Positions 14,979-38,040 of a stretch of 64,000 bases of DNA are shown one piece after another. Location: assembly GCA_016875915.1 (NCBI GenBank), contig VGOM01000002.1:23263-87262 (forward strand), in the 5' to 3' direction. This stretch comes from Chloroflexota bacterium (lineage in GTDB: Bacteria; Chloroflexota; Dehalococcoidia; UBA2247; RBG-13-53-26). The position numbers and the translations under genes were made by a program. The notes below the pieces were generated by a model. That model was given only the letters and a program-made list of their open reading frames with translations. It ran no database searches and was not told the DNA's origin. Numbering within the stretch: the first letter of the stretch is position 1; each line of letters starts with the position of its first letter.

Positions 14979-14995
14979 TAGGCAGAAATACCTAG
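14979..14995. promoter_or_regulatory. palindromic motif TAGGCAGAAATACCTAG (copy A), a putative regulator operator
   Basis: Near-identical motif at 26430-26446 (TAGGCATAAATGCCTAC). Both lie upstream of the paralogous small membrane-protein genes; copy B is a perfect 7-2-7 palindrome. Confidence 0.4.
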
Positions 14996-15082: not shown

Positions 15083-15253
15083 ATGGAATGGCAGTTGATT
15101 GTAGCGCTGGTCATCATGATCCCGGTAATTCTTCTGCCGGTGGCCTTCGTGTGGTACCTCAACCTCGGGGGGATGCGCCTACTGCTTCGCGCCGTTCGGA
15201 GAGGCAAGGCGACCGACAAACAACGGGCGGTCGCCCCTGAGGAGGCAAGATAG
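15083..15253 (+). CDS. small single-pass membrane protein (56 aa), paralog A
   Basis: Hand translation: MEWQLIVALVIMIPVILLPVAFVWYLNLGGMRLLLRAVRRGKATDKQRAVAPEEAR. GGAGG RBS. About 80% nucleotide identity over the first ~90 nt to the ORF at 26692. Below the size cutoff of the ORF track. Confidence 0.6.
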   Translation: MEWQLIVALVIMIPVILLPVAFVWYLNLGGMRLLLRAVRRGKATDKQRAVAPEEAR

Positions 15254-16690: not shown

Positions 16691-16724
16691 GCCTGCCATA
16701 TAATTGTGAAGGAGGTAGGAGGCG

Positions 16725-17204: not shown

Positions 17205-17275
17205 CCCTGCGGCTGCAGACCATTCCCGAGGCAGGCCAGATTGAGTCTTGACGGCAGAACGGATCAGGAAGAGAG

Positions 17276-18430: not shown

Positions 18431-18454
18431 CGAACGCGCAAGGAGATTCTGACC

Positions 18455-20452
18455 ATGGCCAGGATAGGCGTCTTCATCTGCCACTGCGGCACCAACATCG
18501 CCGGCACCGTCGACATCGGCCGTGTGGTTGAGGCAGCCGGTCAGATGCCTATGGTGGTCCACGCCGCCGACAACAAGTACAACTGCAGCGAACCGGGGCA
18601 AGCCCTGATCCGCGACGCCATCGCGGAGCACAGGCTGAGCCGGGTGGTCATCGCCGCCTGTTCGCCGCGGATGCACGAGAATACCTTCCGCAAGACCGTG
18701 GCTGCCGCGGGGCTGAACCCGTATCTGCTGGAGATGGCCAATCTGCGTGAGCACTGCAGCTGGGTCCACAGCGATGGGAAGGAAGCGGCCACCACCAAAG
18801 CCATCGAGCTGATCCGGATGGCCGTGTCCAAGGTGGCCCGCCACGAGAAGCTCTTCCCGAAGCAGGTGTCCCTCACCAAGCGGGCACTGGTCATTGGTGG
18901 GGGCATCTCGGGCATCCAGGCGGCCCTGGACATCGCCAATTCCGGCTACAAGGTGGTCCTGGTCGAGCGCGAGCCGACCATCGGCGGCCGCATGGCCCAA
19001 CTGGACAAGACATTCCCTACCCTGGACTGCTCCTCGTGCATCCTCACGCCCAAGATGGTGGATGTGGCCCAGCATGCCAACATCACCCTGCTGACCAGCG
19101 CGGAGGTGAAAGAGGTCAAGGGCTTCGTGGGCAATTTCGAGGTGAGCATTGTCCAGAAGGCCAGGAAGGTTGACCATGCCAAGTGCACCGGGTGCGGAAT
19201 ATGCTGGCAGAAATGCCCGGAGAAGGCCCCCTCGGAGTTCGACATGGGTCTGGGGAAGCGCTCCGCCATCTACATCCCCTTCCCGCAGGCGGTGCCGCCG
19301 AAGCCGGTGATTGACACCGCCAACTGCCGCTACCACAAACACCTGCGCTTCGTGGAGGAGAAGCGGGAGGGCAAGCCGCCACCCCAGTGCCGCGTCTGCG
19401 AGAAACTCTGCCCGGTGGGCGCCATTGACTGGGAGCAGAAGGACGAAGTCCTGACGGAGAAATTCGGAGCCATCATTGTGGCCACGGGCTACAAGGCCTT
19501 CGAGCCCGCGGTCTATGCAGAGCTGGGCTACGGCAAGCACCCCGACGTGATCACCGGACTGGAGATGGAGAGGATGATGAGCGCCTCCGGGCCAGCCGGC
19601 GGCGACGTGACCCGTCCCTCCAACGGCGAGCATCCCAGGGACGTGGTCTTCCTCACGTGCATTGGCTCCAGGGATGAACAGAGGGGCCGGACCTACTGCA
19701 GCAAGGTCTGCTGCATGTACATCGCCAAACACGCCATCATACTGAAGGAGCACTATCCGGACGTGCAGTGCTACGTCTTCTACATGGACGTCCGGGCAGT
19801 GAGCAAGGACTACGAGGAATTCTACAAGCGGGCCCAGGAGAGCGGCGCCATATACATCCGGGGCAAGGTGTCGGGAATACGGCAGGAGGATGGCCGGCTC
19901 GTCGTGCGGGGCGAGGACACGCTGCTGGGGGAGATGGTCGAGATCCCGGCCGATATGGTAGTGCTGGCCGTGGGCATGGAGCACAGTCCGGGATCGGCCG
20001 AGTTGGCCCAGGCCTTGAAGGTCAGCTATGACATCAACGAGCTGTTCATCGAGGCCCACCCCAAGCTGCGTCCCGTGGAGACGATGAGCGATGGGGTCTT
20101 TGTGGCCGGAGCCTGCGTGGGCCCCCGGGACATCCCTGAATCGGTAGCCAGCGGGAGCGCCGCCGCCGCCAAGGTGGCTGCCCTATTCAGCCAGGAATTC
20201 CTCACCACCGACCCCATGGTGGCCAGTGTGGACCAGATGAAATGCGGCGGCTGCCTGCTGTGCACCAAGGTCTGCCCCTTCAAGGCCATCGACACTCAGG
20301 TACTCCGGGATGGCCGGACCGTGGCCGTGGTCAACGAGAGCCTGTGCAAGGGCTGCGGCCTGTGTGTTGCCACCTGCCGGTTCGGTGCGGCCAACCTGCG
20401 CGGGTTCACGCAGCAGCAGCTGCTGGCTGAGGTGACATCTCTATGGCAATAG
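18455..20452 (+). CDS. hdrA: heterodisulfide reductase subunit A-like flavoprotein
   Basis: N-terminal GVFICHCGTNIAGTVD motif, FAD motif VIGGGISGIQAALD, an inserted ferredoxin and a C-terminal ferredoxin (CGGCLLCTKVCP...CKGCGLCVATC). Confidence 0.9.
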   Translation: MARIGVFICHCGTNIAGTVDIGRVVEAAGQMPMVVHAADNKYNCSEPGQALIRDAIAEHRLSRVVIAACSPRMHENTFRKTVAAAGLNPYLLEMANLREHCSWVHSDGKEAATTKAIELIRMAVSKVARHEKLFPKQVSLTKRALVIGGGISGIQAALDIANSGYKVVLVEREPTIGGRMAQLDKTFPTLDCSSCILTPKMVDVAQHANITLLTSAEVKEVKGFVGNFEVSIVQKARKVDHAKCTGCGICWQKCPEKAPSEFDMGLGKRSAIYIPFPQAVPPKPVIDTANCRYHKHLRFVEEKREGKPPPQCRVCEKLCPVGAIDWEQKDEVLTEKFGAIIVATGYKAFEPAVYAELGYGKHPDVITGLEMERMMSASGPAGGDVTRPSNGEHPRDVVFLTCIGSRDEQRGRTYCSKVCCMYIAKHAIILKEHYPDVQCYVFYMDVRAVSKDYEEFYKRAQESGAIYIRGKVSGIRQEDGRLVVRGEDTLLGEMVEIPADMVVLAVGMEHSPGSAELAQALKVSYDINELFIEAHPKLRPVETMSDGVFVAGACVGPRDIPESVASGSAAAAKVAALFSQEFLTTDPMVASVDQMKCGGCLLCTKVCPFKAIDTQVLRDGRTVAVVNESLCKGCGLCVATCRFGAANLRGFTQQQLLAEVTSLWQ

Positions 20453-23658: not shown

Positions 23659-24960
23659 ATGTACGAAGATCCTTCAGATTCCGGAGACAACCGGAGAATG
23701 CTTCGTGCGCATGGCCCTCATCTGGTCCTGGTGCTCCTGGCGACTGGGGCACTGCTCTGGCATTCGCCCGGCTCAGTCGGCCTCCCGGCAGCGGGCGTCT
23801 TCGGATTCGCCGGGCTGACCGTCCTTCTGGCCATGGTCAGCAGCGTCCTCGGTCCTTTCGCCGGAGGCAACGAGGCGGAATGGACCGTGTACCTGGAGAA
23901 GGCCCTCAAGGCAGAGAGGGACAGGCTGATGGCCATGCTCAACACCATGGAGGAAGGGGTGGCCATCATCGGCCCGGACCACCGGATCCGCTTCATGAAT
24001 CCCAGCATGGTCAGGGACTTCGGCCACGGCATTGGCGCGCTGTGCCACCGGCATCTCTACGGCTTCGACGAGCCGTGCAACGAGGTGTGCAAGCTCCCAC
24101 AGGTGATCAGGGGCTCCACGGAGAGGTGGGACTACACCTTCGCCGACGGCCGGACCTACGACATGATCGCCGCACCGTTCGCCGACTCCGACGAGAGTCC
24201 CTGCATGCTGGCCACCTACAGGAACGTCACCCGGCAGAAGCAGGTTGAGCTGGAGCTAATCAAGCTCAACCGCCTCAAGTCCGAGCTTCTGTCCAACGTG
24301 TCACACGAACTCAAGTCACCGCTGACCTCCATCAAGGGGATCATCAGCAGCCTGCTGCAGGAGGACATCAGATGGGACGATGCCACCGGCAAGATGCTGC
24401 TGGCCGGAATAAGCGAGGAATCGGACCGGTTGGCCAGCCTGGTGACCAACCTGCTGAACATGAGCAAGCTCGAGGCGGGGGTGTGGAATCCCGAGAAGGA
24501 GGCCTGCGACATATCGGAGATCATTCGTGAGACCCTGGAACGCCAGAAGTGGGTCCACAAGAGCCACACGTTCGAGGCCAACGTCGCCCCGGACCTGCCG
24601 GAGATCTCTGCGGACTCCAACCAGATCAAGCAGGTCCTGATCAATCTGCTGGAAAATGCCGCGGCCTACTCTGAAGAAGGCACCAGGATCGTAGTGGCGG
24701 CCAGGGCGGACGGCAGAGAGATCGAGGTGTCGGTGTCCGACCAAGGCATCGGCATGCCGGCGGAGGAACTGGAGAAGGCCTTTGAGAAGTTCTACCGCGG
24801 CAGCCAGAAGCGCCGCCGCCCCGGAGGCACCGGACTGGGCCTGGCCATCTGCAAATCCATTGTCATGGCTCACGGTGGGCGGATCTGGGCCGAGAGCCAA
24901 CTTGGCAGAGGAAGCACCTTCCGCTTCACCCTGCCCCCAGGCGAGCAGGCCAAGCACTAG
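23659..24960 (+). CDS. membrane-anchored PAS sensor histidine kinase (paralog of the 15422 kinase; same 4-Cys PAS motif)
   Basis: Two N-terminal TM segments; the PAS core has ~60% identity to the kinase at 15422, including C-x10-C-x3-C...PCML. HisKA and HATPase_c domains. The start codon is uncertain (23659 or 23698). Confidence 0.85.
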   Translation: MYEDPSDSGDNRRMLRAHGPHLVLVLLATGALLWHSPGSVGLPAAGVFGFAGLTVLLAMVSSVLGPFAGGNEAEWTVYLEKALKAERDRLMAMLNTMEEGVAIIGPDHRIRFMNPSMVRDFGHGIGALCHRHLYGFDEPCNEVCKLPQVIRGSTERWDYTFADGRTYDMIAAPFADSDESPCMLATYRNVTRQKQVELELIKLNRLKSELLSNVSHELKSPLTSIKGIISSLLQEDIRWDDATGKMLLAGISEESDRLASLVTNLLNMSKLEAGVWNPEKEACDISEIIRETLERQKWVHKSHTFEANVAPDLPEISADSNQIKQVLINLLENAAAYSEEGTRIVVAARADGREIEVSVSDQGIGMPAEELEKAFEKFYRGSQKRRRPGGTGLGLAICKSIVMAHGGRIWAESQLGRGSTFRFTLPPGEQAKH

Positions 24961-25688: not shown

Positions 25689-26354
25689 TCACGGGATATC
25701 CTCCAGGGTGACCCAGCCCTCCTTCAGCGCCCTGACCACCGCCTCGGTCCGGGAACTGACCTGCAGTTTGTTGAAGATGTGCCCCAGGTGCCCCTGCACC
25801 GTCCTGATGCTCAGACAGAGATCTCTGGCGATATCGGCGTTACTGAGACCGTGGGTGGCCATCCTGAGTATCTCCTTCTCCCGGTCGCTGAGCACCTCCG
25901 CGGACTTGGCCGGCGACGCCTTTGCACCGCCGGCCACGAAGCGATTGAGCACCTTCTTGGCCACCGCCGGATGCAGCACTGACTCGCCGCCGTGCACCGC
26001 ACGCACCGCGTCTATGAACTCGCGGCTGCGTACGCTCTTGAGCAGATACCCGGCAGCCCCGGCCTCCAGCAGACTGAAGACGAACTGATCATCGTCATAG
26101 GCGGACAGTATCAGGATGGTCACCGAAGGGCAGCGGGCCTTGATCTGTCTGGTCGCCTCTATGCCGTCCAGCTTCGGCATCGATATGTCCACGATGGCAA
26201 CATCGGGCCTGGTCTCGTCCGCCAGTTTGACCGCCTCTTCCCCATCAGCAGCCTCACCCACCACCTCCATATCCCCCTCTTGTTCCAGCATCCTCCTGGT
26301 CCCTTCCCTCACCACAGCATGATCATCCGCTATCAGCACACGTATCTTGCCCAC
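25689..26354 (-). CDS. NarL/LuxR-family response regulator (paralog of 37223-37888)
   Basis: Receiver plus LuxR helix-turn-helix (ILRMATHGLSNADIARDL). The ORF track extends it to 26399. The preferred start is the GTG at ~26354, which has a GGAGAGG RBS and an extended -10 TGCTATAAT 26 nt upstream. Confidence 0.85.
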   Translation of the reverse strand: MGKIRVLIADDHAVVREGTRRMLEQEGDMEVVGEAADGEEAVKLADETRPDVAIVDISMPKLDGIEATRQIKARCPSVTILILSAYDDDQFVFSLLEAGAAGYLLKSVRSREFIDAVRAVHGGESVLHPAVAKKVLNRFVAGGAKASPAKSAEVLSDREKEILRMATHGLSNADIARDLCLSIRTVQGHLGHIFNKLQVSSRTEAVVRALKEGWVTLEDIP

Positions 26355-26377
26355 GTTGCCTCTCCTCTGCCTAGGGC

Positions 26378-26388
26378 GGATTATAGCA
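26378..26388 (-). promoter_or_regulatory. extended -10 promoter element TGCTATAAT for the LuxR-type regulator
   Basis: The minus strand reads TGCTATAATC. The identical element sits at the same spacing upstream of the paralogous gene at 37911-37921. Confidence 0.45.
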
Positions 26389-26429
26389 TCGCGCCTCACC
26401 GCCCCCCAGAGGGGAACTACCCGATGCAG

Positions 26430-26446
26430 TAGGCATAAATGCCTAC
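26430..26446. promoter_or_regulatory. palindromic motif TAGGCATAAATGCCTAC (copy B), a putative operator
   Basis: Perfect TAGGCAT-AA-ATGCCTA palindrome. About 45 nt upstream of the LuxR -10 element and ~245 nt upstream of small gene B. Matches copy A in 14 of 17 positions. Confidence 0.4.
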
Positions 26447-26536
26447 CTCATACCCCGACCATGGGAGTTTTAGGCAAGGGCAAACAAGCATTACTGCGGA
26501 AGCCATCCTTCCCCTCCAGATGATACCTTTGGGCCT

Positions 26537-26611
26537 GGAGGTAAGAGATGCGATGAACACCGCAGAAACTCCCTTCTTCGGCTTCCCTTGCGCATGTCTG
26601 CTCTTACCTCC
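26537..26611 (+). promoter_or_regulatory. long imperfect stem-loop in the 5' region of small-protein gene B
   Basis: GGAGGTAAGAG(ATGCG)...(CGCATGTCTG)CTCTTACCTCC. The outer stem is a perfect 11 bp, extendable to ~18 bp; ~80 nt upstream of the ATG at 26692. Confidence 0.3.
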
Positions 26612-26691
26612 AATTTCTTAACAAGACACGCGGCTGAGAGCGAACATGGCGTTCCGGAAACGGCAGGGGGATGGGGAAGGAGGAGTGAGCC

Positions 26692-26874
26692 ATGGACTGG
26701 GAGTTCATTGTAGCGCTGGTGGTGGCCATTCCCATCGTTCTTCTGCCCGTGGCGTTCGTGTGGTACCTCAATATCGGCGGCATCTACGCAACCATACGAG
26801 CTGCGCGGCGCAGGAGGGCGGCACGCCGCGAAAGGGAGGCCGCGTCCACTAGACAGGGACAAGGAGGAGCCTGA
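26692..26874 (+). CDS. small single-pass membrane protein (60 aa), paralog B
   Basis: MDWEFIVALVVAIPIVLLPVAFVWYLNIGG..., then an Arg-rich tail. GGAAGGAGGAG RBS. Its stop overlaps the next start (TGATG). Confidence 0.6.
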   Translation: MDWEFIVALVVAIPIVLLPVAFVWYLNIGGIYATIRAARRRRAARREREAASTRQGQGGA

Positions 26875-27293
26875 TGGCGGACAGGAAGATTGAACAGATC
26901 CGGGAGATTGTCAGTGGAATCGCTGAACCCGACGAAATCGCGGAAGTGGACAGAGTCGTCGGTGAAGCCAAAGGCAGAATCCTGATGGAGTCGAAGCGGG
27001 GGTTCTGGGCCGGCAAGACCCCGTGCTGGGAAATGGTCCGTTGCCCGGAGGCCATCAAGAACGACTGCCCGGCATCAAAAGGCCACTCAGTGGCCTGCTG
27101 GGAGATCGCAGGGACCTACTGCAAGCTGCCTTCGGGACACGACACCAGTATCTGTGAGGTATGCCGGGTGTACAAGAGGTGGGGCGATGGAGAGGTCATC
27201 GCCATCAAGCTCGATACCACAGGGACCACAGGCAGCGCAGCGGCTGAGACCCGCACAAAGGCGGCTTCAGCCAAGGCAAAGGGCGGGAAGTAA
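26874..27293 (+). CDS. cysteine-rich protein of unknown function (8 Cys, two CWE(M/I) motifs)
   Basis: Cysteine array: ...CWEMVRCPEAIKNDCPASKGHSVACWEIAGTYCKLPSGHDTSICEVCRVY... Translationally coupled to the upstream small membrane protein, with an A/K-rich C-terminal tail. Confidence 0.55.
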   Translation: MADRKIEQIREIVSGIAEPDEIAEVDRVVGEAKGRILMESKRGFWAGKTPCWEMVRCPEAIKNDCPASKGHSVACWEIAGTYCKLPSGHDTSICEVCRVYKRWGDGEVIAIKLDTTGTTGSAAAETRTKAASAKAKGGK

Positions 27294-27385
27294 CTCAGGG
27301 ACGTGAATGGCCACGAACAAGGAGTCCATCGGTTGTTGACACAGGCAGGAAGTATGAGATCGCAGAGGTGTAGAGAGGGGGCAGC

Positions 27386-27410
27386 CGGGCGGCGAAGCCC
27401 CCGTTTCTTT
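27386..27410 (+). terminator. putative intrinsic terminator after the Cys-rich protein gene
   Basis: GC-rich hairpin CGGGCGGC-gaa-GCCCCCG followed by UUUCUUU, ~95 nt after the stop. Confidence 0.35.
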
Positions 27411-27462
27411 GGATAAGGGATCTGGTTCCGCGGCTCGTGCGGCACCGCTTAGGAGGCAAGGG

Positions 27463-27975
27463 ATGACCAAGGCCGAACTAGAATCACTGGTGAAGAGAGA
27501 GGCTGGCACAGGGTACGCCCCCCGCATCTTCAGGGACATCCAGAAGGTCATTGAAGACACCGGAGGGCGGTCGGGGGCATTGATCAGAGTCCTGCAGCAA
27601 GCCCAGGGACTGGTGGGGTATCTGCCGCCGCCGGTGCTCATGACCATCTCCAGGGACCTGAACATACCTCTCAGCGAAGTGAACGGCATAGTCAGTTTCT
27701 ACAGCTTCTTCACCACCGTTCCCCGCGGGAAGTATGTCGTTCAGGTGTGCCTGGGTACATGCTGCTACGTCAGAGGCGGGCAGAGGATCCTGGATGTCCT
27801 GAAGAAGGAGTACGGGCTTGAACCCGGCGATACGTCGCCTGACGGACTGCTGTCCGTGGACACCATCCGCTGTCTGGGGGCCTGCGCCCTGGCCCCGGTG
27901 GTTACTCTGGACGGACAGGTGCACAGAAGGGTGAAGGCCACCGGTGTGAAAGAACTAGTCAGCCACTGCAAATAG
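27463..27975 (+). CDS. hoxE: NuoE-like [2Fe-2S] thioredoxin-fold diaphorase subunit (HoxE/HndA-like)
   Basis: CLGTCC...C...C motif of NuoE/24-kDa-subunit type. Start at MTKAELESL, with an AGGAGG RBS. Confidence 0.85.
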   Translation: MTKAELESLVKREAGTGYAPRIFRDIQKVIEDTGGRSGALIRVLQQAQGLVGYLPPPVLMTISRDLNIPLSEVNGIVSFYSFFTTVPRGKYVVQVCLGTCCYVRGGQRILDVLKKEYGLEPGDTSPDGLLSVDTIRCLGACALAPVVTLDGQVHRRVKATGVKELVSHCK

Positions 27976-27985
27976 GGGGTTAGCC

Positions 27986-30900
27986 GTGAAGAGAATTGAC
28001 TCCTTGGAAGCCCTGGACGCCATCAAGAAGAAGGTAAGGCCCCGTCTGGCCGTCAGAGAGGACACCGACCACAGCAAGATCAAGGATGCCGCTCAGGTCG
28101 ATGTGCTCGTCTGCAGAGGCACCGGCTGCACGGCTGCCGGCGCCGACCTGGTCGAAGAGGCTTTCCGCGACCTCATTGCCAAGAAAGGCCTCGAGTCCAA
28201 AGCCAGAGTCGTTGGCGTGACCAAGATCGGCTGCCGCGGTTTCTGTGAGAAGGGCCCCAACGTGACCATCACCCCCGGTGACATCCTCTACACCCTGGTG
28301 AAGCCCGAAGACGTGGAGGAGATCATCGAGACGCACCTCATCCACGGTGAGATCGTGGACAGGCTGGTCTACGTTGACCCCATCAGCCGCAAGGCCAGTC
28401 CGGCGAACCATGACATCGAGTTCTATAAGAAGCAGAAGAGGATCGTTCTGGGCCTCAACGGCCTGATAGACCCATGGAGCATAGAGGACTACATCGCCTT
28501 TGACGGCTACCGCGCCTTTGTCCGCGCGCTGACCCAGATGAACGCCGATCAGGTCCTGGAAGAGGTGAATAAGTCGGGCCTCCGCGGGCGGGGCGGGGCC
28601 GGATTCCCCACGGCGCGCAAATGGACGTTCGTCCGCAATGCCACCGGCGATGAGAAGTTCGTGGTCTGCAACGGAGACGAAGGCGACCCCGGGGCTTTCA
28701 TGAACCGCTCCGTCCTCGAAGGCAACCCCCACGCCGTGGTTGAGGGCATGCTGCTGGGAGCATATGCCATCAAGAATGTCCGCCAGGGATATGCCTACGT
28801 CCGTGCCGAGTACCCGCTGGCCATCGAGACGCTGGGCCACGCCATAAGCCAGGCTCGCCAGTACGGGCTGCTGGGCAAGGACATCCTGGGGACCGGCTTC
28901 GAGTTCGATCTCGACATCTTCCCCGGTGCGGGAGCCTTCGTCTGCGGAGAAGAGACCGCCCTGCTCATATCCATCGAAGGCAAGCGGGGCAATCCCCGCC
29001 AAAGGCCCCCGTTCCCGGCCAACAAGGGTCTCTTCGACAAGCCGACCACCATCAACAATGTGGAGACGTGGTCCATAGTCCCGCAGATCATCCTCAACGG
29101 CGGGGAGTGGTACAAGAGCCTGGGAGTGAAGGGGAACGCGGGAACCAAGACCTTCTGCCTGGTGGGCAAGATCAGTAGCTCCGGAATCGCTGAAGTCCCG
29201 GTCGGCACTCCCTTGGGGAACATAGTCTTCGACATCGGCGGAGGTCCTCCCGGCGACAAGGCCTTCAAGGCCGTCCAGATCGGCGGACCCTCCGGCGGCG
29301 TGATCCCTATCGAGCATATCAACACCTCCGTTGACTATGAATCGGTGACCAGCCTGGGGGCCATCATGGGCTCCGGCGGCCTCATCGTCATGGATGAAGA
29401 CAGCTGCATGGTGGACATGGCCAAGTTCTTCCTCCAGTTCACCAAGGACGAGTCCTGCGGCAAATGCCTCCCGTGCCGCGCCGGCATCCCCAAGATGCTG
29501 GACATCCTGAACAAGATCACCCGGGGCGAAGGCAGCCTGGAAGACCTGGCCGTCCTCCAGGAGTTGGCCGAGATGGTGGGCTCCGCGTCCCTCTGCGGAC
29601 TGGGCCAGACCGCCCCCAACCCCGTGTTGAGCACCATCCGCCACTTCCGTCAGGAGTACGAGGCGCATATCATCGACAAGAGGTGTCCGGCGGCTGTCTG
29701 CGCAGCGCTGTTCAAGGCACCATGCCAGCACACCTGTCCGGTGGGCCTGGATGTCCCGGGCTACGCCGCCTTCATCAAGGAAGGCCGGTTCGCCGATGCC
29801 TACCGACTGATCAAGCAGAGGAATCCCTTCCCCTCGATTTGTGGCCGAGTCTGCCACCACCCCTGCGAGAGCAAGTGCCGGCGGGGGCAGATGGATGAGC
29901 CCGTGGCAATCAGGCACCTGAAGCGGTTCGCCGCTGACTGGGCTATCGAACACGGCTTCGAATATATACCGCCGGTGAAGGAGAGAAGGGCGGAGAAGGT
30001 GGCCATCGTTGGGGCCGGCCCCGCCGGACTGTCCGCGGCTCACGACCTGGCCCTTGACGGCTACCCGGTCACGGTCTTCGAGGCTTTGTCCGTGGCCGGC
30101 GGCATGCTTGCGGTGGGCATACCCGAATACCGGCTGCCCAGGAACGCCATCCAGAGAGAGATCGACGCCATCCGGAGAATGGGCGTTGATATCCAACTGA
30201 ACACCAGCATCGACGATCTGAAGGCCCTGTTCAAGGATGGCTACAAGGCCGTCTTCATGGCCGTGGGTGCCCACAGCGGGGACAAGATGAAGATCGCCGG
30301 CGAGGACATGAAAGGCGTGTACGACGCCGTGGAGTTCCTCCGCGACGCCAACCTGGGCCGCGCCGCCAAGGTAGGGAAGAAGGTGGCCGTGGTCGGCGGG
30401 GGCAATACTGCCACCGACTCCGCCAGAGTGGCCCTGAGGATGGGCGCCGAAGAGGTGCACATGTTCTACAGGCGGGAGAAGAAGGATATGCCCGCCATAG
30501 CCGAGGAGGTGGTGGCCGTCGAGGAAGAGGATATCCACCTTCACCTGCTGACCGCCCCCACCCGGATAGTGGGCCAGGACGGCAGGGTGTCAGGGCTGGA
30601 GCTGATCCAGATGACGCTGGGAGAGTTCGACAAGAGCGGCAGGAGAACGCCGAGCAATGTTGCCGGCTCTGAGTACGTCTTCAAGTGCGACACCATCATC
30701 GAGGCCATCGGGCAGCGGCCAGCCACCGCCTCGTTCAGCGGCAACGGACTCAAGATCGGCCGGGGCGGGACCATATCCGCAGATGCCCGCACCCTGGCCA
30801 CGGATCAGCCGGGCGTGTTTGCCGGTGGAGATGCAGTGACCGGCCCCCAGACGGTGATAGAAGCCATCGCCGCCGGCCAGAGGGCCGCTTCTTCCATCAA

Positions 30901-31141
30901 GCGCTTCCTGCGGGGAAGCGATCTGGCCCCGAGGGTGGATCGCCCCGACGTCGAGGCCTTCGTGCTGCCTGCGCCTGACGAGGTGGAGGACGTCAAAGAG
31001 AAAGCACGGCTGGTCATCGAGGAGGTGACCTCGAAGAAGAGGAAGGGCTCATTCGACGAAGTGGTCCTGGGCTACAGCGCTCCGGAGGCCATGGAAGAGG
31101 CAGCGCGATGCCTCAGGTGCGATGCAGAAGCTGGAGGATAA
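27986..31141 (+). CDS. hoxF: NuoF-like NAD(H)-binding FMN/[4Fe-4S] diaphorase subunit (HoxF) with N-terminal [2Fe-2S] domain, fused to a C-terminal GltD-like FAD/NAD(P)-binding domain
   Basis: GTG start. N-terminal thioredoxin-like [2Fe-2S] (CRGTGCTAAG...CRGFCEKGP). NuoF core (GRGGAGFPTARKW, CGKCLPCR). 2x[4Fe-4S]. Then, from about residue 650, VAIVGAGPAGLSAAHDL...VAVVGGGNTATDSAR, typical of the glutamate synthase small chain. Confidence 0.88.
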   Translation: MKRIDSLEALDAIKKKVRPRLAVREDTDHSKIKDAAQVDVLVCRGTGCTAAGADLVEEAFRDLIAKKGLESKARVVGVTKIGCRGFCEKGPNVTITPGDILYTLVKPEDVEEIIETHLIHGEIVDRLVYVDPISRKASPANHDIEFYKKQKRIVLGLNGLIDPWSIEDYIAFDGYRAFVRALTQMNADQVLEEVNKSGLRGRGGAGFPTARKWTFVRNATGDEKFVVCNGDEGDPGAFMNRSVLEGNPHAVVEGMLLGAYAIKNVRQGYAYVRAEYPLAIETLGHAISQARQYGLLGKDILGTGFEFDLDIFPGAGAFVCGEETALLISIEGKRGNPRQRPPFPANKGLFDKPTTINNVETWSIVPQIILNGGEWYKSLGVKGNAGTKTFCLVGKISSSGIAEVPVGTPLGNIVFDIGGGPPGDKAFKAVQIGGPSGGVIPIEHINTSVDYESVTSLGAIMGSGGLIVMDEDSCMVDMAKFFLQFTKDESCGKCLPCRAGIPKMLDILNKITRGEGSLEDLAVLQELAEMVGSASLCGLGQTAPNPVLSTIRHFRQEYEAHIIDKRCPAAVCAALFKAPCQHTCPVGLDVPGYAAFIKEGRFADAYRLIKQRNPFPSICGRVCHHPCESKCRRGQMDEPVAIRHLKRFAADWAIEHGFEYIPPVKERRAEKVAIVGAGPAGLSAAHDLALDGYPVTVFEALSVAGGMLAVGIPEYRLPRNAIQREIDAIRRMGVDIQLNTSIDDLKALFKDGYKAVFMAVGAHSGDKMKIAGEDMKGVYDAVEFLRDANLGRAAKVGKKVAVVGGGNTATDSARVALRMGAEEVHMFYRREKKDMPAIAEEVVAVEEEDIHLHLLTAPTRIVGQDGRVSGLELIQMTLGEFDKSGRRTPSNVAGSEYVFKCDTIIEAIGQRPATASFSGNGLKIGRGGTISADARTLATDQPGVFAGGDAVTGPQTVIEAIAAGQRAASSIKRFLRGSDLAPRVDRPDVEAFVLPAPDEVEDVKEKARLVIEEVTSKKRKGSFDEVVLGYSAPEAMEEAARCLRCDAEAGG

Positions 31142-31144
31142 GAG

Positions 31145-33124
31145 ATGAAGCAGATAACGCTCACTGTTGACGGCAAGGAAGTCAAGGGCCGCGAGGGTGA
31201 TACTGTCCTCGATGTCTGCCAGGCCAACGGCTTCGATGTCCCCACACTGTGCCATTTCAAGGGTCTTACCAGTGTCGGCGCCTGCCGCATGTGTGTCGTT
31301 GACATTGAGGGTGAGAGAAGGATAAACCCCGCCTGCACCTACCCCGCCAGGGACGGCTTGGTGGTGCAGACCAAGACCGAGACGCTGGAGAGATACCGCC
31401 GCCTGATGCTGGAACTGATGTTCACGGAGAGGAACCACCTCTGCATGTTCTGCGAGCAGAGCGGCGACTGCGAGCTGCAGAAGATGGCCTACCGCTATCA
31501 GATGGATAATGTCCGCTACCCCTACACCTTTCCGTCGCAGCCGCTGGACCCGTCCACGGACGCCATTGCCGTGGACCACAACCGCTGCATCCTCTGCGGC
31601 AGGTGCGTCCGCGCCTGCGCTCAGATTGAAGCCAACCACACCCTGGATTTCTCCAAGCGCGGCTGGAAGACCATGGTGGCGGCCGATCTGGGCCAGTTGC
31701 TGGGCGAATCGTCATGCACACTCTGCGGGGCCTGTATGCAGGTCTGCCCCACCGGAGCAGTATTCTCCAAACTTAGCATCTATAAGGGGAGGACCGCGGA
31801 GTGTCAGAAGACTGATACGGTCTGCCCCATCTGCGGGGTGGGCTGCGAGCTGCGGGTCTTCTCCAAGGACAACAACGTGATACTTATTCAGGCCCCGGAA
31901 CCGGCTCAGCCAAGGGGAGCCCTCTGCAAAGAGGGCCGCTTCGGGCTGCTCCGCAACGGGCATCTGAGGGTCGCCTCACCCCTGATCAGGGACAGGCATG
32001 GCAGGCAGTCGGAGAGCACTCTGGATGAAGCCCTGGAGGCGGCGGCAGAGAAGCTCAAGGCGGCGGGGCGGGGCTCCACTGCCGGGGTTGTCTCGTCCAG
32101 ACTGCCCGGCGAGACCCTCTCCCTCTTCGACAACTTCGTGCGCGATGTGCTGGGCAGCGACTGCATCGATACCTGCGATGGCAGGTCCTTCCGGGTGATT
32201 GCCCAGGGCATCAAGCAGTTCCACGGCAAGAGGAAGGGCCTGGACATCGAATGCGGTGCCGAGGAGATCCTTCAGGCCGACTGCATCCTCCTGGTGGGGG
32301 CTGACCCCCTGAAGACCCACCCGGTCATCGGCGCGCTGATCCGCAGAGCCTTGGACGAGAGGAAGGCCAAGCTGGTGGTGGTCAACGTTGAGAGGGATGT
32401 CTTCCCCCTATGGAGCACCCTCTGGCTGAAGCCCAGGGCGGGCAGCGAAGGAGCGGTGCTCAGCGGCCTGTCCAAGAGCATCATCGACAACGGCCTGGTG
32501 AAGACCAAGAAGACGCCGGCTGAGCTCATTCAGTCCCAGCGCCGCTACTGGACCGAGGAACCGGTCCATTCCACCGGCGTCGATCCGGAGAAGATCGATG
32601 CCGCGGCCAGGATGTACGCCGAGGCTGAGAACGCCGTGATCATCTACGGTGAAGGGTTGCTGGAGAGGAATGACTCCAATCTGGTCACCCTCCTGCTCAA
32701 CCTGGCCGATCTGACCGGGAACCAGGCGGGAAGCCATCTCCGCGTGCTCTCCCTCAAACCGCACTGCAACAGCCGCGGCGCCTGGGATCTGGGCATAGCA
32801 GACAAGGAGATCCCCCGGGGCAAGGTGAACGGGCTTTATCTGCTTCTGGGTGAGGAGCAGGGAAGCGAGAGGCTGCAGAGCTGGCTTCGGGGCATGGATT
32901 TCCTCATTGTCCAGGCCAGCTACCAGTCGCCGGTGACCTCGATGGCCGACATCGTATTGCCATCGCCAACCTGGGCGGAGAGGGAGCCGGGGGAGTTCAT
33001 CAGCATGGACGGTCGTATCTACGAGTCACGACCGGTCGTCAGCCCGGCGGATGGCGTGCTTCAAGACAGGGAGATCCTGGTGAGGCTCTCGAAGAAGCTG
33101 GGACACAGATTGACCCCAAGGTAG
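31145..33124 (+). CDS. hoxU: NuoG/HoxU-like Fe-S subunit with an N-terminal [2Fe-2S] and [4Fe-4S] region and a degenerate molybdopterin-oxidoreductase-like C-terminal domain
   Basis: 2Fe-2S motif (CRMCVVDIEGERRINPAC), 4Fe-4S His/Cys cluster motifs, CILCGRCVRAC and CTLCGACMQVCP. No Mo-ligating Cys/Sec context. Confidence 0.85.
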   Translation: MKQITLTVDGKEVKGREGDTVLDVCQANGFDVPTLCHFKGLTSVGACRMCVVDIEGERRINPACTYPARDGLVVQTKTETLERYRRLMLELMFTERNHLCMFCEQSGDCELQKMAYRYQMDNVRYPYTFPSQPLDPSTDAIAVDHNRCILCGRCVRACAQIEANHTLDFSKRGWKTMVAADLGQLLGESSCTLCGACMQVCPTGAVFSKLSIYKGRTAECQKTDTVCPICGVGCELRVFSKDNNVILIQAPEPAQPRGALCKEGRFGLLRNGHLRVASPLIRDRHGRQSESTLDEALEAAAEKLKAAGRGSTAGVVSSRLPGETLSLFDNFVRDVLGSDCIDTCDGRSFRVIAQGIKQFHGKRKGLDIECGAEEILQADCILLVGADPLKTHPVIGALIRRALDERKAKLVVVNVERDVFPLWSTLWLKPRAGSEGAVLSGLSKSIIDNGLVKTKKTPAELIQSQRRYWTEEPVHSTGVDPEKIDAAARMYAEAENAVIIYGEGLLERNDSNLVTLLLNLADLTGNQAGSHLRVLSLKPHCNSRGAWDLGIADKEIPRGKVNGLYLLLGEEQGSERLQSWLRGMDFLIVQASYQSPVTSMADIVLPSPTWAEREPGEFISMDGRIYESRPVVSPADGVLQDREILVRLSKKLGHRLTPR

Positions 33125-33134: not shown

Positions 33135-33671
33135 GTGGCCAAACCGAAGATCGCTACTGCGTGGCTAGCCGGGTGTGCTGGATGTCATATGTCCTTCCTT
33201 GACATCGATGAGGCGATCATCGAGGTCGCCAAACTGGTGGAGATCACCGCCAGTCCCATCACCGACTTCAAGGAGTTCCCCGCTGTTGACGTCGGCATCG
33301 TCGAAGGCGCCGTCAATACCACGGACAACGTCGAGGTAGTGCACAAGCTGCGGCACGCCTGCAAGATACTCATGGCCTGGGGTGACTGCGCCTGCTTCGG
33401 GGGCATACCTACCATGCGCAATATGTTCGACAAGAACGAACTGCTCCGGCGGGCTTTCGTCGAAACCGAGAGCACCGCGAAGGGGAGGATCCCCTCCTCT
33501 GACGAGCTGCCCCGCCTTCTGGATCAGTGCAAGCCGGTGCACAACGTCGTCAAGGTGGATTGCTTCGTCCCCGGCTGTCCCCCCAGTGCCAAAGCGATTC
33601 ACTACGCCCTGGTGGAGCTCCTCAATGGCAGGATCCCGGTGCTGCCCGCCGAAATGATGAAGTTCGACTGA
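33135..33671 (+). CDS. hoxY: [NiFe]-hydrogenase small subunit, group 3d (HoxY)
   Basis: GTG start after a GGAGG RBS. WLAGCAGCHMSF...WGDCACFGG...VPGCPP; short (178 aa), HoxY-type. Confidence 0.88.
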   Translation: MAKPKIATAWLAGCAGCHMSFLDIDEAIIEVAKLVEITASPITDFKEFPAVDVGIVEGAVNTTDNVEVVHKLRHACKILMAWGDCACFGGIPTMRNMFDKNELLRRAFVETESTAKGRIPSSDELPRLLDQCKPVHNVVKVDCFVPGCPPSAKAIHYALVELLNGRIPVLPAEMMKFD

Positions 33672-33697: not shown

Positions 33698-35128
33698 ATG
33701 ACCAAGAAGATCGTCATCGAGCCGATTACCCGTATCGAGGGCCACGGGAAGGTGACCATCGAACTGGACAACGACGGGAATGTTGCCGACACCAGGTTCA
33801 ATGTCGTGGAGTTCCGGGGGGTGGAGAAGTTCTGTGAGGGGCGGCTCTTCTGGGAAATGCCACTGATCACTGCACGGGTCTGCGGCATCTGCCCCGTCAG
33901 CCATCATCTGGCCGCCGCCAAGGCCGGCGATGCCATCCTGGGCGTTGAACTGCCCCCGGCGGCCAAGAGACTGCGCGAGCTGCTCCACATGGCCCAGTAC
34001 GTCCAATCCCATTCTCTTCACTTCTTCCACCTGGCCAGCCCCGATCTGCTCCTGGGTATGGACGCCGATCCGGCCAAACGGAACGTCATCGGGCTCATCG
34101 CCGAGAAACCTGAAATCGCAGTCAAAGGGGTGATGCTGCGCAAGTTCGGCCAGGAGCTGATTGAAGCCCTGGGCGGCAAGAAGGTGCATCCCAACGCTGC
34201 CATCCCGGGAGGGATGAACAAGGCCCTCTCCCATGCGGAGCGGGACAGGTTCCTGGGGCAGGCAGACCGGGTCATCGCTGACATCGGCGTTGCCCTGGAC
34301 ATCGCCAAGGACTACTTCGCCCACCACGGGCGCGAAGCGGCTACCTTCGCCGTGTTCCCGTCCTGCTATATGGGACTGGTGGGCCAGAGCGGGAATCTCG
34401 AGCTGTACGACGGCACTCTGAGGGTCAGAGACAGCAAGGGGTTCATCCTCGAAGATAACGTGGATCCCAGCGACTACCTGTCCATCATCGAGGAAACGGT
34501 GGAGGACTGGTCCTACCTCAAGTTCCCCTACTACAAGAAGTGGGGCTACCCCGCCGGCACCTACCGCGTCGGCCCGCTGGGCAGGCTGAACGTGGCGGAC
34601 AGGATTGCCACGCCTCTGGCCGACAAGGAGTTCCGCGCCTTCAAGAAGCTCGGAAACGACGGGATAGTCGAGGGTTCGCTGTACTACCACTATGCCCGGC
34701 TCATCGAGGCCCTGTACGCCGCCGAGAGGCTGAAGGCACTGCTGGAGGATGAACTCACCTGTTCAACTGAGATAAACGTCAACTCCTCGACCTTCAACGA
34801 AGAGGGTATCGGGGTCATCGAGGCCCCCAGGGGCACGCTGATCCATCACTACTGGGTGGACCGCAACGGGACAGTGAGGAAGGCCAACCTCATCGTGGCC
34901 ACCGGGCACAACAACGGGGCCATCAACCGCGCCGTTCACGAGGTGGCCAAGGAGTACATCAAGGGGACCAAGATCGCCGAGGGAATGCTGAACCGGGTGG
35001 AGGCAGCCATTCGCTGCTACGACCCCTGTCTCTCCTGTTCAACGCACGCCCTGGGGCAGATGCCCCTGAGAATCGAAGTGGTCTCCCCCTCCGGGGAGGT
35101 CTTGGACTGCTCTCAGACCCGGCCGTAG
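33698..35128 (+). CDS. hoxH: [NiFe]-hydrogenase large subunit, group 3d (HoxH)
   Basis: Start at [17 protein letters not shown] with a [16 protein letters not shown] and C-terminal [12 protein letters not shown], plus a C-terminal extension for endopeptidase processing. The ORF track entry starts further upstream. Confidence 0.92.
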
Positions 35129-35184: not shown

Positions 35185-37191
35185 TTATGCGGCGATCTCC
35201 ACCACCACCGATGTACCTTTGCCCGGCTCGGAGTGAAAGGTCACATTGCCGCCGAGCAGGCCCGCCCTCTCCTGCATGCCGGTCAACCCGAGCTTGCCGT
35301 CCCTGGTCAGATCACCGACGGAACTCGGCACGGCGAAGCCCTTGCCATTGTCCTTGATGATCATCACCACCTTGGATCCCTGGAAATCCACGCTGACTTC
35401 TGCTTCTGTTGCCTCGGAATGCCGCCAGACATTCCTCAGGGACTCCTGAGCGATCCGAAACAGAGTCAGCTCGACATCGGGAGGTAGTCGCCGGCTGGCG
35501 CCGCCCACTTTGACCTTGACATCTATGCCTGAGTACCGGGACACATCGCTGGCCAGCCACTCCAGCCCGGCCAGCAGGCCGAGCCGGTCCAGCGTCGAAG
35601 GTCTCAGGTCCTGAGTCAGACGCCTCACCCCGTCCATGATGCCGGTGGTCTGCTGCCGCAGGCTCTCCAGGAGAGCCCTCTTCTCCTCCGGCATGCTCCT
35701 GCCCGAAGAGGCCGCATCCTCGAGCTGCCGCGAAAGGACCACCAGCGCCTGTATGGTGTCATCGTGAAGCTCGCGGGCAATGCGCTTTCTCTCCTCTTCC
35801 TGGGCCTTGGTCACCTGGCTCAGGTAGCGGCGCAGGTTCTCTTTCAGACGGATCTCCTCGGTCACATCCCTGGCGATGTTGTGGAAGCCCACGGGCTTTC
35901 CATCCTCCGCCACCATGCTGGTGGTCACCATCAGTATCGCCTCGGAACCGTCCCTGCGCCCCATGCGCAGCTCATAGGGCTGTTCCAGGGGCTCGCCGTC
36001 CATCAACTTGGACTTGACCTCCCTGGCACGGCCTAGGCCCTCCTCCGACAGGAAACCCCTGACGTTCATGGTGAGTAGTTCTGCCATGCTATATCCAGTG
36101 ACCTTCTCGGAGGCCCTGTTGGCAACGATGTAGTTCCCTTCCAGGTCGTGCACCCAGATGGCATCGTAGGCGTTCTCGAAGAGCCCCCGGTAGTTCCTCT
36201 CCGAGACAGCCAGCCTCTGGGTCGCCAGACGCTCCATCTCATACAGTCGAGCGTTGTCTGTGGCCACCCCGATCTGGTTGGCGATGGCGGTGAGCAATTC
36301 CACGTCGTCCTTCAGGAAGCGCCTGACACTCCGCGTAGCCACGTAGAGGGTCCCAGCCACCCTGCCCTTGGCCTTCATAGGCACCACCAACTGGGACCGA
36401 ATCCCCTCCTGCTTCACTGCCTGCCTGGCCACATCGTAGTGCTGGAAGGCATCCTCCACCAGCTTCATCTCGCCCGACTCAGCGACATGATTCTGGAAGC
36501 CGCGGCGCACCTTCACCCGGCCCACGGCCAGCACGAATTCCTGGGACGCACCGTGGTGGGCGGAGACCACCAGCTCGCCCGCCTCCTCATCGACAAGGGC
36601 GATCATGGCCACGTCTACCTTGGTCACATCGACCACATTCCGCACCGCCCTGTTCAACACATCATCCAGCTGCAGCGACTCAGACAGTATGGCCGACATC
36701 CGGTTCAGAGCCCCCAGTTTCCTCTCATTCTCCTTGATCACCTGGAGCTGCAGTTGCAGCCTCTTCTCCGCCATCTCCAGCTGGGTCCGGCGGTTGTGCT
36801 CCTCTCTGAGGGACTTGAAGGATAGGGCCACAACCATGCCGATGCTGAATACGGCAATGCTCTCCAGAATCGCGTCCGTGGGGTGGTCCGAGATGGCGAT
36901 GGCCCGCGGCAGCATGCAGGCCAGGGCCACGACGGAGGTGGCCACCACCCCCCGCTGGCCGAAAAGGAATCCCGCCCAGACCATCGGGGCCAGGTAGAGT
37001 ATTCTCTCGAACGAGTGTCTGTCCAGCTTGATGTTGTCAAGGACGCTGTTCAGCCACTGGGGATAGCCCGCCGTGTCCCGGTAGTGCAGGACGGTGATCA
37101 GTGCCAGCAGGACGACTGTCAGCCAGAAGCCAGGGCGCTTCAACAACCCCGACAGACGTCTGGTCAACGGCATTCTCTCGTGTTCAGCCAC
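35185..37191 (-). CDS. NarL-family sensor histidine kinase (TM + GAF + PAS + HisKA_3 + HATPase)
   Basis: N-terminal TM helices, GAF and PAS regions, the HisKA_3 H-box (ARELHDDTIQAL) and HATPase_c (GKGTSV). Confidence 0.88.
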   Translation of the reverse strand: MAEHERMPLTRRLSGLLKRPGFWLTVVLLALITVLHYRDTAGYPQWLNSVLDNIKLDRHSFERILYLAPMVWAGFLFGQRGVVATSVVALACMLPRAIAISDHPTDAILESIAVFSIGMVVALSFKSLREEHNRRTQLEMAEKRLQLQLQVIKENERKLGALNRMSAILSESLQLDDVLNRAVRNVVDVTKVDVAMIALVDEEAGELVVSAHHGASQEFVLAVGRVKVRRGFQNHVAESGEMKLVEDAFQHYDVARQAVKQEGIRSQLVVPMKAKGRVAGTLYVATRSVRRFLKDDVELLTAIANQIGVATDNARLYEMERLATQRLAVSERNYRGLFENAYDAIWVHDLEGNYIVANRASEKVTGYSMAELLTMNVRGFLSEEGLGRAREVKSKLMDGEPLEQPYELRMGRRDGSEAILMVTTSMVAEDGKPVGFHNIARDVTEEIRLKENLRRYLSQVTKAQEEERKRIARELHDDTIQALVVLSRQLEDAASSGRSMPEEKRALLESLRQQTTGIMDGVRRLTQDLRPSTLDRLGLLAGLEWLASDVSRYSGIDVKVKVGGASRRLPPDVELTLFRIAQESLRNVWRHSEATEAEVSVDFQGSKVVMIIKDNGKGFAVPSSVGDLTRDGKLGLTGMQERAGLLGGNVTFHSEPGKGTSVVVEIAA

Positions 37192-37222: not shown

Positions 37223-37888
37223 TCAGGGCACGTCTTCCAGAGTGACCCACTCTTCCTTCAAGGCCCGGACCACCGCCTCAGTGCGGGAGCCAACCTGCAG
37301 CTTGTTGAATATGTGCCCCAGATGCCCCTGCACAGTCCGTATGCTGAGGCACAACTCCTCGGCGATGTCGGCATTGCTCAGGCCGCGGGCGGCCAGCTTG
37401 AGGATCTCCTTCTCTCGATCGCTCAGTATCTCGGCCGACCTAGCGGCCACCGTCTTCTTGTTGCCGGCCATGAAGCGGTTGAGCACCTTCTTGGCCACGG
37501 CAGGGTGCAGCACAGACTCGCCGGAATAGACCGCCCTGACCGCATCCACCACCTCGCGGCTGCGCACGCTCTTGATCAGATAGCCCGCCGCGCCGGCCTC
37601 CAGCAGAGCGAAGACAAACTGATCATCATCATAGGCAGAGAGGATCAGCACCGTCACTGAAGGGCAGCGCCTCTTGATCTCCTTGGTGGCCTCTATGCCA
37701 TCGAGCTTCGGCATCGAGATGTCCATTATGGCTACGTCCGGCCTCAACTCATCGGCCAGGCATACCGCCTCTTCACCATCGCCGGCCTCGCCCACCACCT
37801 CGAGGTCCTTCTCGCGCTCGAACATCCTCCTCATCCCCTCCCTCACCATCGCATGATCATCAGCTATCAGCACTCGGATATTGGTCAT
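37223..37888 (-). CDS. NarL/LuxR-family response regulator (cognate of the upstream kinase; paralog of 25689-26354)
   Basis: About 75% aa identity to the other LuxR regulator. Start set at MTNIRVLIADDH, which has a GGGGG RBS and the TGCTATAAT element 26 nt upstream. The ORF track extends it to 37948. Confidence 0.88.
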   Translation of the reverse strand: MTNIRVLIADDHAMVREGMRRMFEREKDLEVVGEAGDGEEAVCLADELRPDVAIMDISMPKLDGIEATKEIKRRCPSVTVLILSAYDDDQFVFALLEAGAAGYLIKSVRSREVVDAVRAVYSGESVLHPAVAKKVLNRFMAGNKKTVAARSAEILSDREKEILKLAARGLSNADIAEELCLSIRTVQGHLGHIFNKLQVGSRTEAVVRALKEEWVTLEDVP

Positions 37889-37910
37889 GCCACCCCCTCG
37901 TAGCTGACGT

Positions 37911-37921
37911 AGATTATAGCA
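37911..37921 (-). promoter_or_regulatory. extended -10 promoter element TGCTATAAT for the LuxR-type regulator (copy 2)
   Basis: Same sequence and spacing as at 26378-26388. Confidence 0.45.
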
Positions 37922-38040
37922 CAGGCCGAACGTGATCTCGCGTTGCATTGGACCAGGCGCACCGGCACCGCACGGGTTTCTTTGACACTCGCGTTCGGCA
38001 CAGCGTACAATCTACACAGGAGACTCGCTCAGGAGGCCAG

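Follow-up and report, generated by a model that had tools for sequence, protein, structure and literature searches.

In a window of 64,000 nucleotides (nt) from a Chloroflexota bacterium (GenBank assembly GCA_016875915.1, contig VGOM01000002.1, forward-strand positions 23,263 to 87,262; all coordinates below count from the first letter of this window), a small cysteine-rich protein is encoded at the head of a hoxEFUYH-type [NiFe]-hydrogenase operon (Table 1). Judged from profiles and alignments, this protein belongs to the two-CW superfamily as a divergent member that stands alone, because searches with a profile of its core bring up proteins above the cut-off of the NCBIfam model NF045718 ("two-CW domain") and because its cysteine and Cys-Trp columns align with theirs. 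The most likely role of the two-CW protein is to sense redox state or oxygen, and not to serve as an enzyme subunit. We give an even chance to the more specific reading, in which it would be a stand-alone metal-dependent sensory module that reports the oxygen or redox state to a circuit controlling the hydrogenase operon. An earlier note on this DNA had overlooked both the existing family name and the context of the hox operon and its two-component system, which proved to be decisive.

The two-CW protein and its family

The open reading frame (ORF) starts with ATG, and its product of 139 amino acids is identical to FJ020_00985, a "hypothetical protein" of a Chloroflexi metagenome-assembled genome (MAG) at NCBI. 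As the earlier note had described, the protein contains two CWE(M/I) units (C51-W52-E53-M54 and C75-W76-E77-I78), no transmembrane helix is evident by eye, and the C-terminal tail is rich in Ala and Lys. The eight cysteines that had been counted, however, are seven (positions 51, 57, 65, 75, 83, 94 and 97, together with Trp 45, 52 and 76 in the core), and in their pattern, C-x5-C-P-x6-C-P-x8-C-W-x6-C-x10-C-x2-C, the spacers given as x7, x10 and x12 are in fact x6, x8 and x10. Two predicted helices make up residues 1-36 and are followed by the core with all seven cysteines (approximately residues 43-114) and the tail (residues 115-139). The tail is variable among homologues and was modelled by AF2 as disordered, with a predicted local distance difference test score (pLDDT) of ∼34. 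The core model, with a pLDDT of 88 and a predicted template modelling score of 0.71, shows little regular secondary structure.

A homologue search returned 184 proteins, all unnamed or "hypothetical", and the named sources were Chloroflexota or Dehalococcoidia. Aligning 56 of these showed six cysteines to be invariant and the seventh, C83, to be retained in 55; W45, W52, W76, G80-T81-Y82, K84-L85, V99 and Y100 were invariant as well. No histidine was conserved among these 56 proteins, 26 of which carry an additional cysteine at position 55 that is absent from the window copy. Since it is conserved across homologues, the pattern in this ORF is more than chance; a lack of conservation in relatives, which the earlier note had named as a refutation of its proposal, was not what we found. 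A scan of one genome per species detected relatives in 204 genomes, the best 80 matches all being Chloroflexota MAGs, and a further homologue search with a diverse alignment yielded almost the same set of Chloroflexota proteins, none with an informative name. When the core profile was run against 1.84 billion proteins (cluster representatives), 427 matched at E≤1e-3, of which 74 reached E≤1e-10. Where the source of a relative was recorded, it was Dehalococcoidia, Thermodesulfobacteriota or Nitrospirae, all known as anaerobic lineages. Many of the Hox-linked two-CW proteins have an extra soluble N-terminal domain of ∼80 residues (MKIGDTVKI...YGF.Y.EVE), as in P0005, P0016, P0036, P0042, P0049 and P0078 (∼212-239 amino acids) and in L003:8001-8645. 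We rejected the idea that the 212-residue homologues are fusions with the small membrane protein described below, as the extra ∼80 residues are soluble and have no Pfam match.

The window protein itself matched NF045718 with 19.6 bits (E 8.9e-4), residues 50-102 aligning to positions 2-76 of the 80 in the model, and its close homologue P0110 scored 21.7 bits; the curated cut-off is 35 bits. Relatives retrieved by the core profile nevertheless include proteins above that cut-off, namely P0182 (93.4 bits; E 2.7e-13 against the core profile), P0186 (78.2 bits) and P0121 (38.9 bits). When 62 diverse relatives were aligned, C11, W12, C17, C25, C35, W36 and C54 (alignment numbering) were invariant, and C57, the second cysteine of the closing C-x2-C pair, was present in at least 90%. 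The window protein thus shares with accepted NF045718 members the seven-cysteine scaffold and the two Cys-Trp dipeptides, in register. It differs in that its divergent Chloroflexota clade adds the N-terminal two-helix region (residues 2-36) and a strong link to hox operons, and in that it stands alone, whereas the high-scoring members examined are domains within chemoreceptors and cyclases.

Apart from this family, nothing could be assigned. The two-CW domain has no Pfam model. At E≤1, the window protein gave only a weak, sub-threshold match to the unrelated family His_Me_b4a2 (E 0.069), and no Pfam family spanned the domain in the 62 diverse relatives, where we saw isolated chance matches resembling zinc fingers and a weak match to DUF2769 in three members (best E 0.0046). 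The earlier note had placed the motif outside the ferredoxin, rubredoxin and zinc-ribbon families, and this holds. No Fer4 family matched the window protein or the 62 relatives at E≤1, and the window protein lacks the combination of a CxxCxxCxxxCP motif and a profile match that marks 4Fe-4S ferredoxins. Instead of the two CxxC knuckles of rubredoxins and zinc ribbons it has a single CxxC (C94-x2-C97), its other spacings being x5, x7, x9, x7 and x10. The motifs of WhiB-like proteins (C-Xn-C-X2-C-X5-C and G[V/I]WGG) are absent, as is a match to Pfam Whib. There is likewise no match to CZB (PF13682) and no conserved histidine for its 3His/1Cys site, and no similarity to the HoxE, F, U, Y, H or I families, gene adjacency being the sole link to Hox. 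Fold and sequence searches found no two-CW relative among solved structures, and a sequence profile search of the PDB gave none at E≤10. A literature search on "two-CW", on cysteine-rich or Fe-S chemoreceptor domains and on Hox regulation in Dehalococcoidia found nothing relevant.

Fusion partners suggest a signal-input module

To which other domains two-CW is fused was surveyed by scanning 30 long relatives against Pfam. The signalling domain of methyl-accepting chemotaxis proteins (MCPs; MCPsignal) was present in 12 of them, HisKA plus HATPase_c in five and GGDEF in two; single cases carried HD_5 (HD-GYP-type), a LysR helix-turn-helix (HTH) plus substrate-binding domain, a receiver (REC) domain, PAS only, or HEAT repeats, and six had no Pfam match. 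Signalling-output or DNA-binding domains were accordingly found in 21 of the 30, besides the one REC and the one PAS protein, and an XRE-type HTH occurred in three short relatives. None of the 30 was fused to a redox-enzyme domain. The two-CW domain is placed after HAMP and before the output domain in the kinases, the cyclases and the HD protein, whereas MCPs and some kinases carry it at their C-terminal end, which is also where CZB is found in MCPs. Recurrent fusion to diverse signalling outputs characterises the sensory domains of signal transduction, and the two-CW domain displays it; as read from the domain order, its arrangement is the signature of a cytoplasmic signal-input module. Of the two functions proposed in the earlier note, that of a sensor gained from the finding that the same domain is joined to MCP, histidine kinase, GGDEF, HD, LysR, XRE and receiver domains. 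That of an electron-transfer adaptor lost ground through the lack of any redox-enzyme fusion among the 30 and through the paralogues in contexts without a hydrogenase.

Since seven conserved cysteines hold it together, the core of ∼72 residues very probably binds a metal centre, for which an Fe-S cluster would be our preferred guess. Conceivably, however, the same signalling role could be played by a zinc- or thiol-based redox switch, from which oxidants (oxygen-derived species or hypochlorous acid) would release zinc. Models for this are the ZAS anti-sigma factors, Hsp33 and the CZB domain of chemoreceptors. The small, cysteine-rich core with little regular secondary structure would fit such a switch, as would the link to oxidative-stress operons and the C-terminal position in MCPs, which is that of CZB; CZB even co-occurs with two-CW once, in P0188. 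Yet zinc sites are usually built from paired knuckles, and only one CxxC knuckle is found among the seven cysteines. Moreover, no histidine is conserved and no zinc-finger or CZB match recurs, and we consider a zinc or thiol switch unlikely.

Conserved gene order with hoxEFUYH and a two-component system

The genomic context was determined in a census of 78 distinct genome loci of Dehalococcoidia. In 44 of these, hoxE followed within 2.6 kb downstream of the two-CW gene on the same strand, in the order two-CW, then hoxE-F-U-Y-H. A LuxR response regulator was divergently encoded in 32 of the 37 Hox-type loci with enough upstream sequence, and a kinase of the GAF-PAS-HisKA_3 type accompanied the two-CW genes in most loci. 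The first homologous loci examined were all alike: two-CW precedes hoxEFUYH, and the genes for the kinase and the regulator diverge from it. The remaining features of the window locus are listed in Table 1.

Table 1. Features of the two-CW/hox locus in the window
Feature	Position	Strand	Evidence
LuxR/NarL-family response regulator (REC + GerE), divergent from the small membrane protein/two-CW pair	25689..26399	-	
Perfect 7-2-7 palindrome between the divergent genes, TAGGCATAAATGCCTA; located 31 bp 5′ of the start of the response regulator	26430..26445		
Single-pass membrane protein, 60 amino acids; transmembrane helix at ∼residues 5-27, Arg-rich tail	26692..26874	+	
Stand-alone two-CW domain protein, 139 amino acids	26874..27293	+	ORF, sequence, NF045718 match, conservation, AF2 models
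Core two-CW domain, residues 43-114	27000..27215	+	Alignments; core model
HoxE/NuoE-like [2Fe-2S] subunit	27409..27975	+	
HoxF-like flavin mononucleotide/NAD(P)H subunit fused to a GltD-like pyridine-nucleotide oxidoreductase module	27986..31141	+	
HoxU/NuoG-like Fe-S subunit with molybdopterin-oxidoreductase-like domain	31145..33124	+	
HoxY-like [NiFe]-hydrogenase small subunit	33135..33671	+	
HoxH-like [NiFe]-hydrogenase large subunit	~33698..35128	+	
Membrane-anchored sensor kinase: about four N-terminal hydrophobic segments, GAF, PAS, HisKA_3, HATPase_c	35185..37191	-	
Second LuxR-type response regulator, paired with the kinase	37223..37948	-	

The spacing between two-CW and hoxE is loose. 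In most loci the gap is ∼115-330 bp (18 bp in L001 and L002), as opposed to 3-15 bp between the hox subunit genes. Scans of 26300-27600 for Rfam families, promoters and terminators found nothing.

The gene order would also suit an extra Fe-S subunit or electron-transfer adaptor of cytoplasmic [NiFe]-hydrogenases, which could link HoxEFU or Hdr-Mvh to, for example, ferredoxin. Such a subunit would be expected where the gene is found, which is immediately 5′ of hoxE and in the same orientation in the 44 loci and upstream of Hdr-Mvh operons too, and there is no terminator-like site between two-CW and hoxE. One locus (L086) has hox genes and two-CW without an adjacent two-component system. Furthermore, the seven cysteines and two Cys-Pro pairs recall ferredoxins, in whose motifs Cys-Pro pairs occur and among which the 7Fe type has seven cysteine ligands. 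However, a subunit role is difficult to reconcile with a fusion survey in which redox enzymes are absent and signalling proteins prevail, or with paralogues found at the head of loci for oxygen detoxification or acetyl-CoA synthetase and in tandem pairs. No Fer4-type match supports it, the subunit genes are usually much closer to one another than two-CW is to hoxE, and to our knowledge the known Hox enzymes need no such extra subunit. We therefore regard this explanation as improbable.

Several details of the operon deserve mention. HoxE may in fact begin with the ATG at 27454, preceded by an AGGAGG sequence. The mechanical ORF of hoxH starts at 33527, but the probable start is MTKKIV at 33698; the homologues have 474-480 amino acids and match PF27537 (HoxH). 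Mechanical ORF calling masks hoxY with spurious antisense ORFs. Unlike most homologous loci, the window contains no hycI/hoxW protease gene after hoxH. The two LuxR-type regulators, which are 81% identical, flank the hox operon, and since only the downstream copy sits with a kinase, the upstream one looks like an orphan duplicate. Elsewhere in the window, on the plus strand, two paralogous histidine kinases (15422-16690 and 23659-24960; 43% identity), in which Pfam sees only HisKA and HATPase_c, share an N-terminal sensor region with four conserved cysteines (C-x11-C-x3-C ... PCML). By this pattern, the region may be another metal- or redox-sensing domain.

A candidate operator upstream of two-CW genes

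The palindrome in the divergent intergenic region has the form TAGGCAT-N2-ATGCCTA. Allowing up to two mismatches, we counted 36 copies in the 1-kb regions 5′ of two-CW genes (75 kb in total) versus 10 in the remaining 1077 kb of the loci, which is a ∼50-fold enrichment. Of the 44 Hox-type loci, 25 had a copy within 1 kb upstream. The palindrome is also found 5′ of operons for molybdo-oxidoreductases that are led by a gene for the small membrane protein (L087 and L088), and upstream of two-CW genes without an adjacent regulator (L037, L051 and L071). Because a 7-2-7 inverted repeat is the classic site of the NarL family, the most economical binder of this candidate operator would be the adjacent LuxR/NarL-type regulator.

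As a different possibility, the two-CW protein could itself be an autonomous transcription factor or RNA-polymerase-binding regulator in the manner of WhiB, acting without a two-component system and possibly on the palindrome. Its small size, the cysteine-rich core and the basic tail of the window copy are in line with this idea, as are the stand-alone genes and tandem pairs that lack adjacent regulators and the three loci where the palindrome occurs without one. On the other hand, we detected no DNA-binding fold in two-CW, and the tail is not conserved. The fusions to transcription factors bring a separate HTH (LysR or XRE), which implies that two-CW is not their DNA-binding part. With a palindrome of the NarL type and a regulator of that family adjacent in most loci, an autonomous regulator appears very unlikely.

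A second palindrome copy in the window, TAGGCAGAAATACCTA, is located at 14979-14994 and is followed by a second gene for a small membrane protein. In L016 and L020, a palindrome-like site, TAGGCATTTATGCTTA, lies between two-CW and hoxE (approximately +592 to +600 from the two-CW start). Its location suggests that in some genomes hoxE would have a regulated promoter of its own, separate from that of two-CW.

Paralogues in other contexts

Among the other loci of the census, 13 contained a tandem pair of two-CW genes with no obvious operon and with neither an adjacent regulator nor a palindrome. In seven, two-CW belonged to an operon with rubrerythrin, flavin reductase-rubredoxin, an ODP/flavodiiron-type protein and desulfoferrodoxin. 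Three (to which L084 can be added) had an HdrCBA-MvhDGA hydrogenase operon, three had a cyclic nucleotide-binding protein with acetyl-CoA synthetase, and the remaining eight were of other kinds or on contigs that were too short. The Hdr-Mvh operons headed by two-CW are those of L060, L062 and L084. The tandem paralogues are short (∼112 amino acids each, without the N-terminal helices) in L047, L052, L055, L061, L063, L064, L072, L073 and L083, and probably also in L076 and L079-L081; they are located at about -530 and +15 relative to the match and are neighboured by genes for an MFS transporter and an RNase H-like protein.

A regulatory role is favoured over a structural one because two-CW goes with oxygen-sensitive enzymes and with an operon for oxygen detoxification, and because it occurs with several unrelated operon types and at a loose spacing from hoxE. 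The same contexts bear on the notion of a maturation or protection factor (a chaperone, or a protein for oxygen protection) serving the NiFe module that Hox and Mvh have in common. The domain is indeed tied to two types of [NiFe]-hydrogenase that share only the small and large subunits, yet its gene is at the opposite end of the operon from the hyp or hycI genes, paralogues reside in loci without hydrogenase genes, and in other phyla the domain is fused to signalling proteins. The chances of such a factor are slim indeed.

The small membrane protein

The stop codon of the 60-residue ORF shares its A with the ATG of two-CW (ccTGATGg), so that the two genes overlap by 1 nt, and a Shine-Dalgarno sequence, AAGGAGGAG, is located just 5′ of each. 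Co-translation of the two proteins, as put forward in the earlier note, is compatible with this overlap, and the overlap together with the ribosome-binding site makes translational coupling plausible.

The small membrane protein belongs to a family with 688 homologues at E≤0.01, unnamed or "hypothetical", whose named sources are all Dehalococcoidia or Chloroflexota. Its gene adjoins two-CW in five of the 78 loci and additionally in L084, but in only one of the 44 Hox-type loci (L006). It stands before or after two-CW in the window and in L006, L024, L045, L060 and L084, with the same 1-nt overlap in L024 as in the window; L062 has a weaker match ∼1.6 kb downstream. We rejected an obligate partnership, because no such gene was found upstream of two-CW in L001-L005. 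The pairing is recurrent and not obligate. Recruitment of the two-CW protein to the membrane, which the earlier note had inferred from this partner, is thus weakly supported: the pairing is real in the window but is restricted to a minority of loci.

Genes of this family also head molybdo-oxidoreductase operons that have no two-CW gene. Tandem pairs of them lead operons for a molybdopterin oxidoreductase, a 4Fe-4S protein and NrfD in L087 (5001-5432), L088 (5001-5457) and L089 (5001-5432), and in L088 the pair is divergent from the same LuxR regulator and GAF-PAS kinase, with a palindrome-like site in the gap. The second paralogue in the window (15083-15253; 56 amino acids, 57% identical to the copy beside two-CW) has no two-CW gene next to it. 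It adjoins the operon of a second cytoplasmic [NiFe]-hydrogenase, encoded on the minus strand, with a GltD-like/Fer4 protein (12896-14686), a small subunit (11451-12416) and a large subunit (9964-11427). On its other side, the plus strand encodes a histidine kinase, a REC-only regulator, an HdrCB-like protein and HdrA (15422-20452).

A model for two-CW in hydrogenase regulation

In the model that we favour, the transcription unit that runs into hoxEFUYH, or lies just upstream of it, would open with two-CW, preceded in some cases by the small membrane protein. The metal centre of two-CW would shift state with oxygen or the cellular redox state. This change could then be relayed by protein-protein contact, through the conserved N-terminal helices, to the circuit of GAF-PAS kinase and response regulator or to another partner, and the relay would tune the expression of oxygen-sensitive redox enzymes.

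Several observations weigh against this model. The score of the window protein falls short of the NF045718 cut-off, and the empty fold searches lend no structural backing to any cofactor; the binding of a metal is deduced from the seven invariant cysteines, and the interaction with a partner is hypothetical. In the REC-two-CW protein (P0140), the domain occupies the usual place of an output domain. A sensor is more commonly encoded beside its regulator than inside or at the start of the operon that it helps to control, a place where genes for accessory subunits or assembly factors are typically found. L086 combines hydrogenase adjacency with the lack of a nearby two-component system. Finally, the tandem-pair and oxidative-stress loci have no regulator and mostly no palindrome, from which it follows that the partner would be encoded elsewhere or differ between paralogues.

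A broader proposal, which we make tentatively and consider less likely than not to hold in full, is that two-CW could be an unrecognised cluster-based (probably Fe-S) oxygen or redox input domain in the chemoreceptors, kinases, cyclic di-GMP enzymes and transcription factors of anaerobes. The stand-alone form in Dehalococcoidia, with the small membrane protein, the GAF-PAS kinase and the NarL-type regulator acting at TAGGCAT-N2-ATGCCTA, would then constitute a circuit that switches cytoplasmic hydrogenases and other redox enzymes.

The name two-CW was already known from NCBIfam, and the window protein is a divergent member of this uncharacterised kind. New, as far as we have searched, are the link to hydrogenase and oxygen-stress operons of Dehalococcoidia, the partner two-component system, the operator motif and the recurring small membrane protein. 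Dehalococcoidia are abundant anaerobes of the subsurface and of sediments, and their regulation has hardly been worked out experimentally. A conserved small sensor heading hydrogenase operons, together with an operator and a two-component system, offers a testable circuit for hydrogen metabolism and oxygen stress. The domain has been catalogued but not studied, and it spans chemoreceptors, kinases and cyclic di-GMP enzymes of several anaerobic phyla; knowing its cofactor and its signal would enlarge the set of input domains in bacterial signal transduction by a new one.

Comparison with known systems

With CZB, a cytoplasmic metal-dependent module that is found in MCPs and diguanylate cyclases and also stands alone, two-CW shares the nature of a small sensory module at the ends of MCPs, and the two co-occur in P0188. 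CZB, however, folds into a four-helix bundle and binds zinc through three histidines and one cysteine, whereas two-CW has seven cysteines, no conserved histidine and no sequence match to CZB.

Sensors with a cysteine-ligated cluster that control anaerobic or redox genes include NreB (of NreBC), FNR and the WhiB-like proteins, whose four cysteines are embedded in a PAS, CRP or Wbl fold. The partner of NreB is a regulator of the NarL type, and the kinase described here would likewise have one. In contrast to these sensors, the candidate sensor two-CW is a separate small protein with a putative cofactor, and we detected no relationship to them in sequence or fold.

The small membrane protein invites a comparison with MgrB, a small membrane-protein modulator of the sensor kinase PhoQ. 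It is likewise a single-pass protein of ∼50-60 residues, encoded downstream of a likely regulator site and beside a kinase with a multi-pass membrane anchor. It might, as pure speculation by analogy, modulate the sensor kinase in a similar manner. MgrB is not homologous to it, the interaction is purely hypothetical here, and its family differs further by occurring in tandem pairs at the head of molybdo-oxidoreductase operons.

Similar in overall design is the hydrogen-sensing HoxBC-HoxJ-HoxA system of Cupriavidus necator, in which an accessory sensor, a histidine kinase and a response regulator control hydrogenase operons. There the sensor HoxBC is a regulatory [NiFe]-hydrogenase and the regulator is of the NtrC type, while two-CW has no hydrogenase features; what the two systems would have in common is an accessory sensor alongside a kinase and a regulator for hydrogenase operons.

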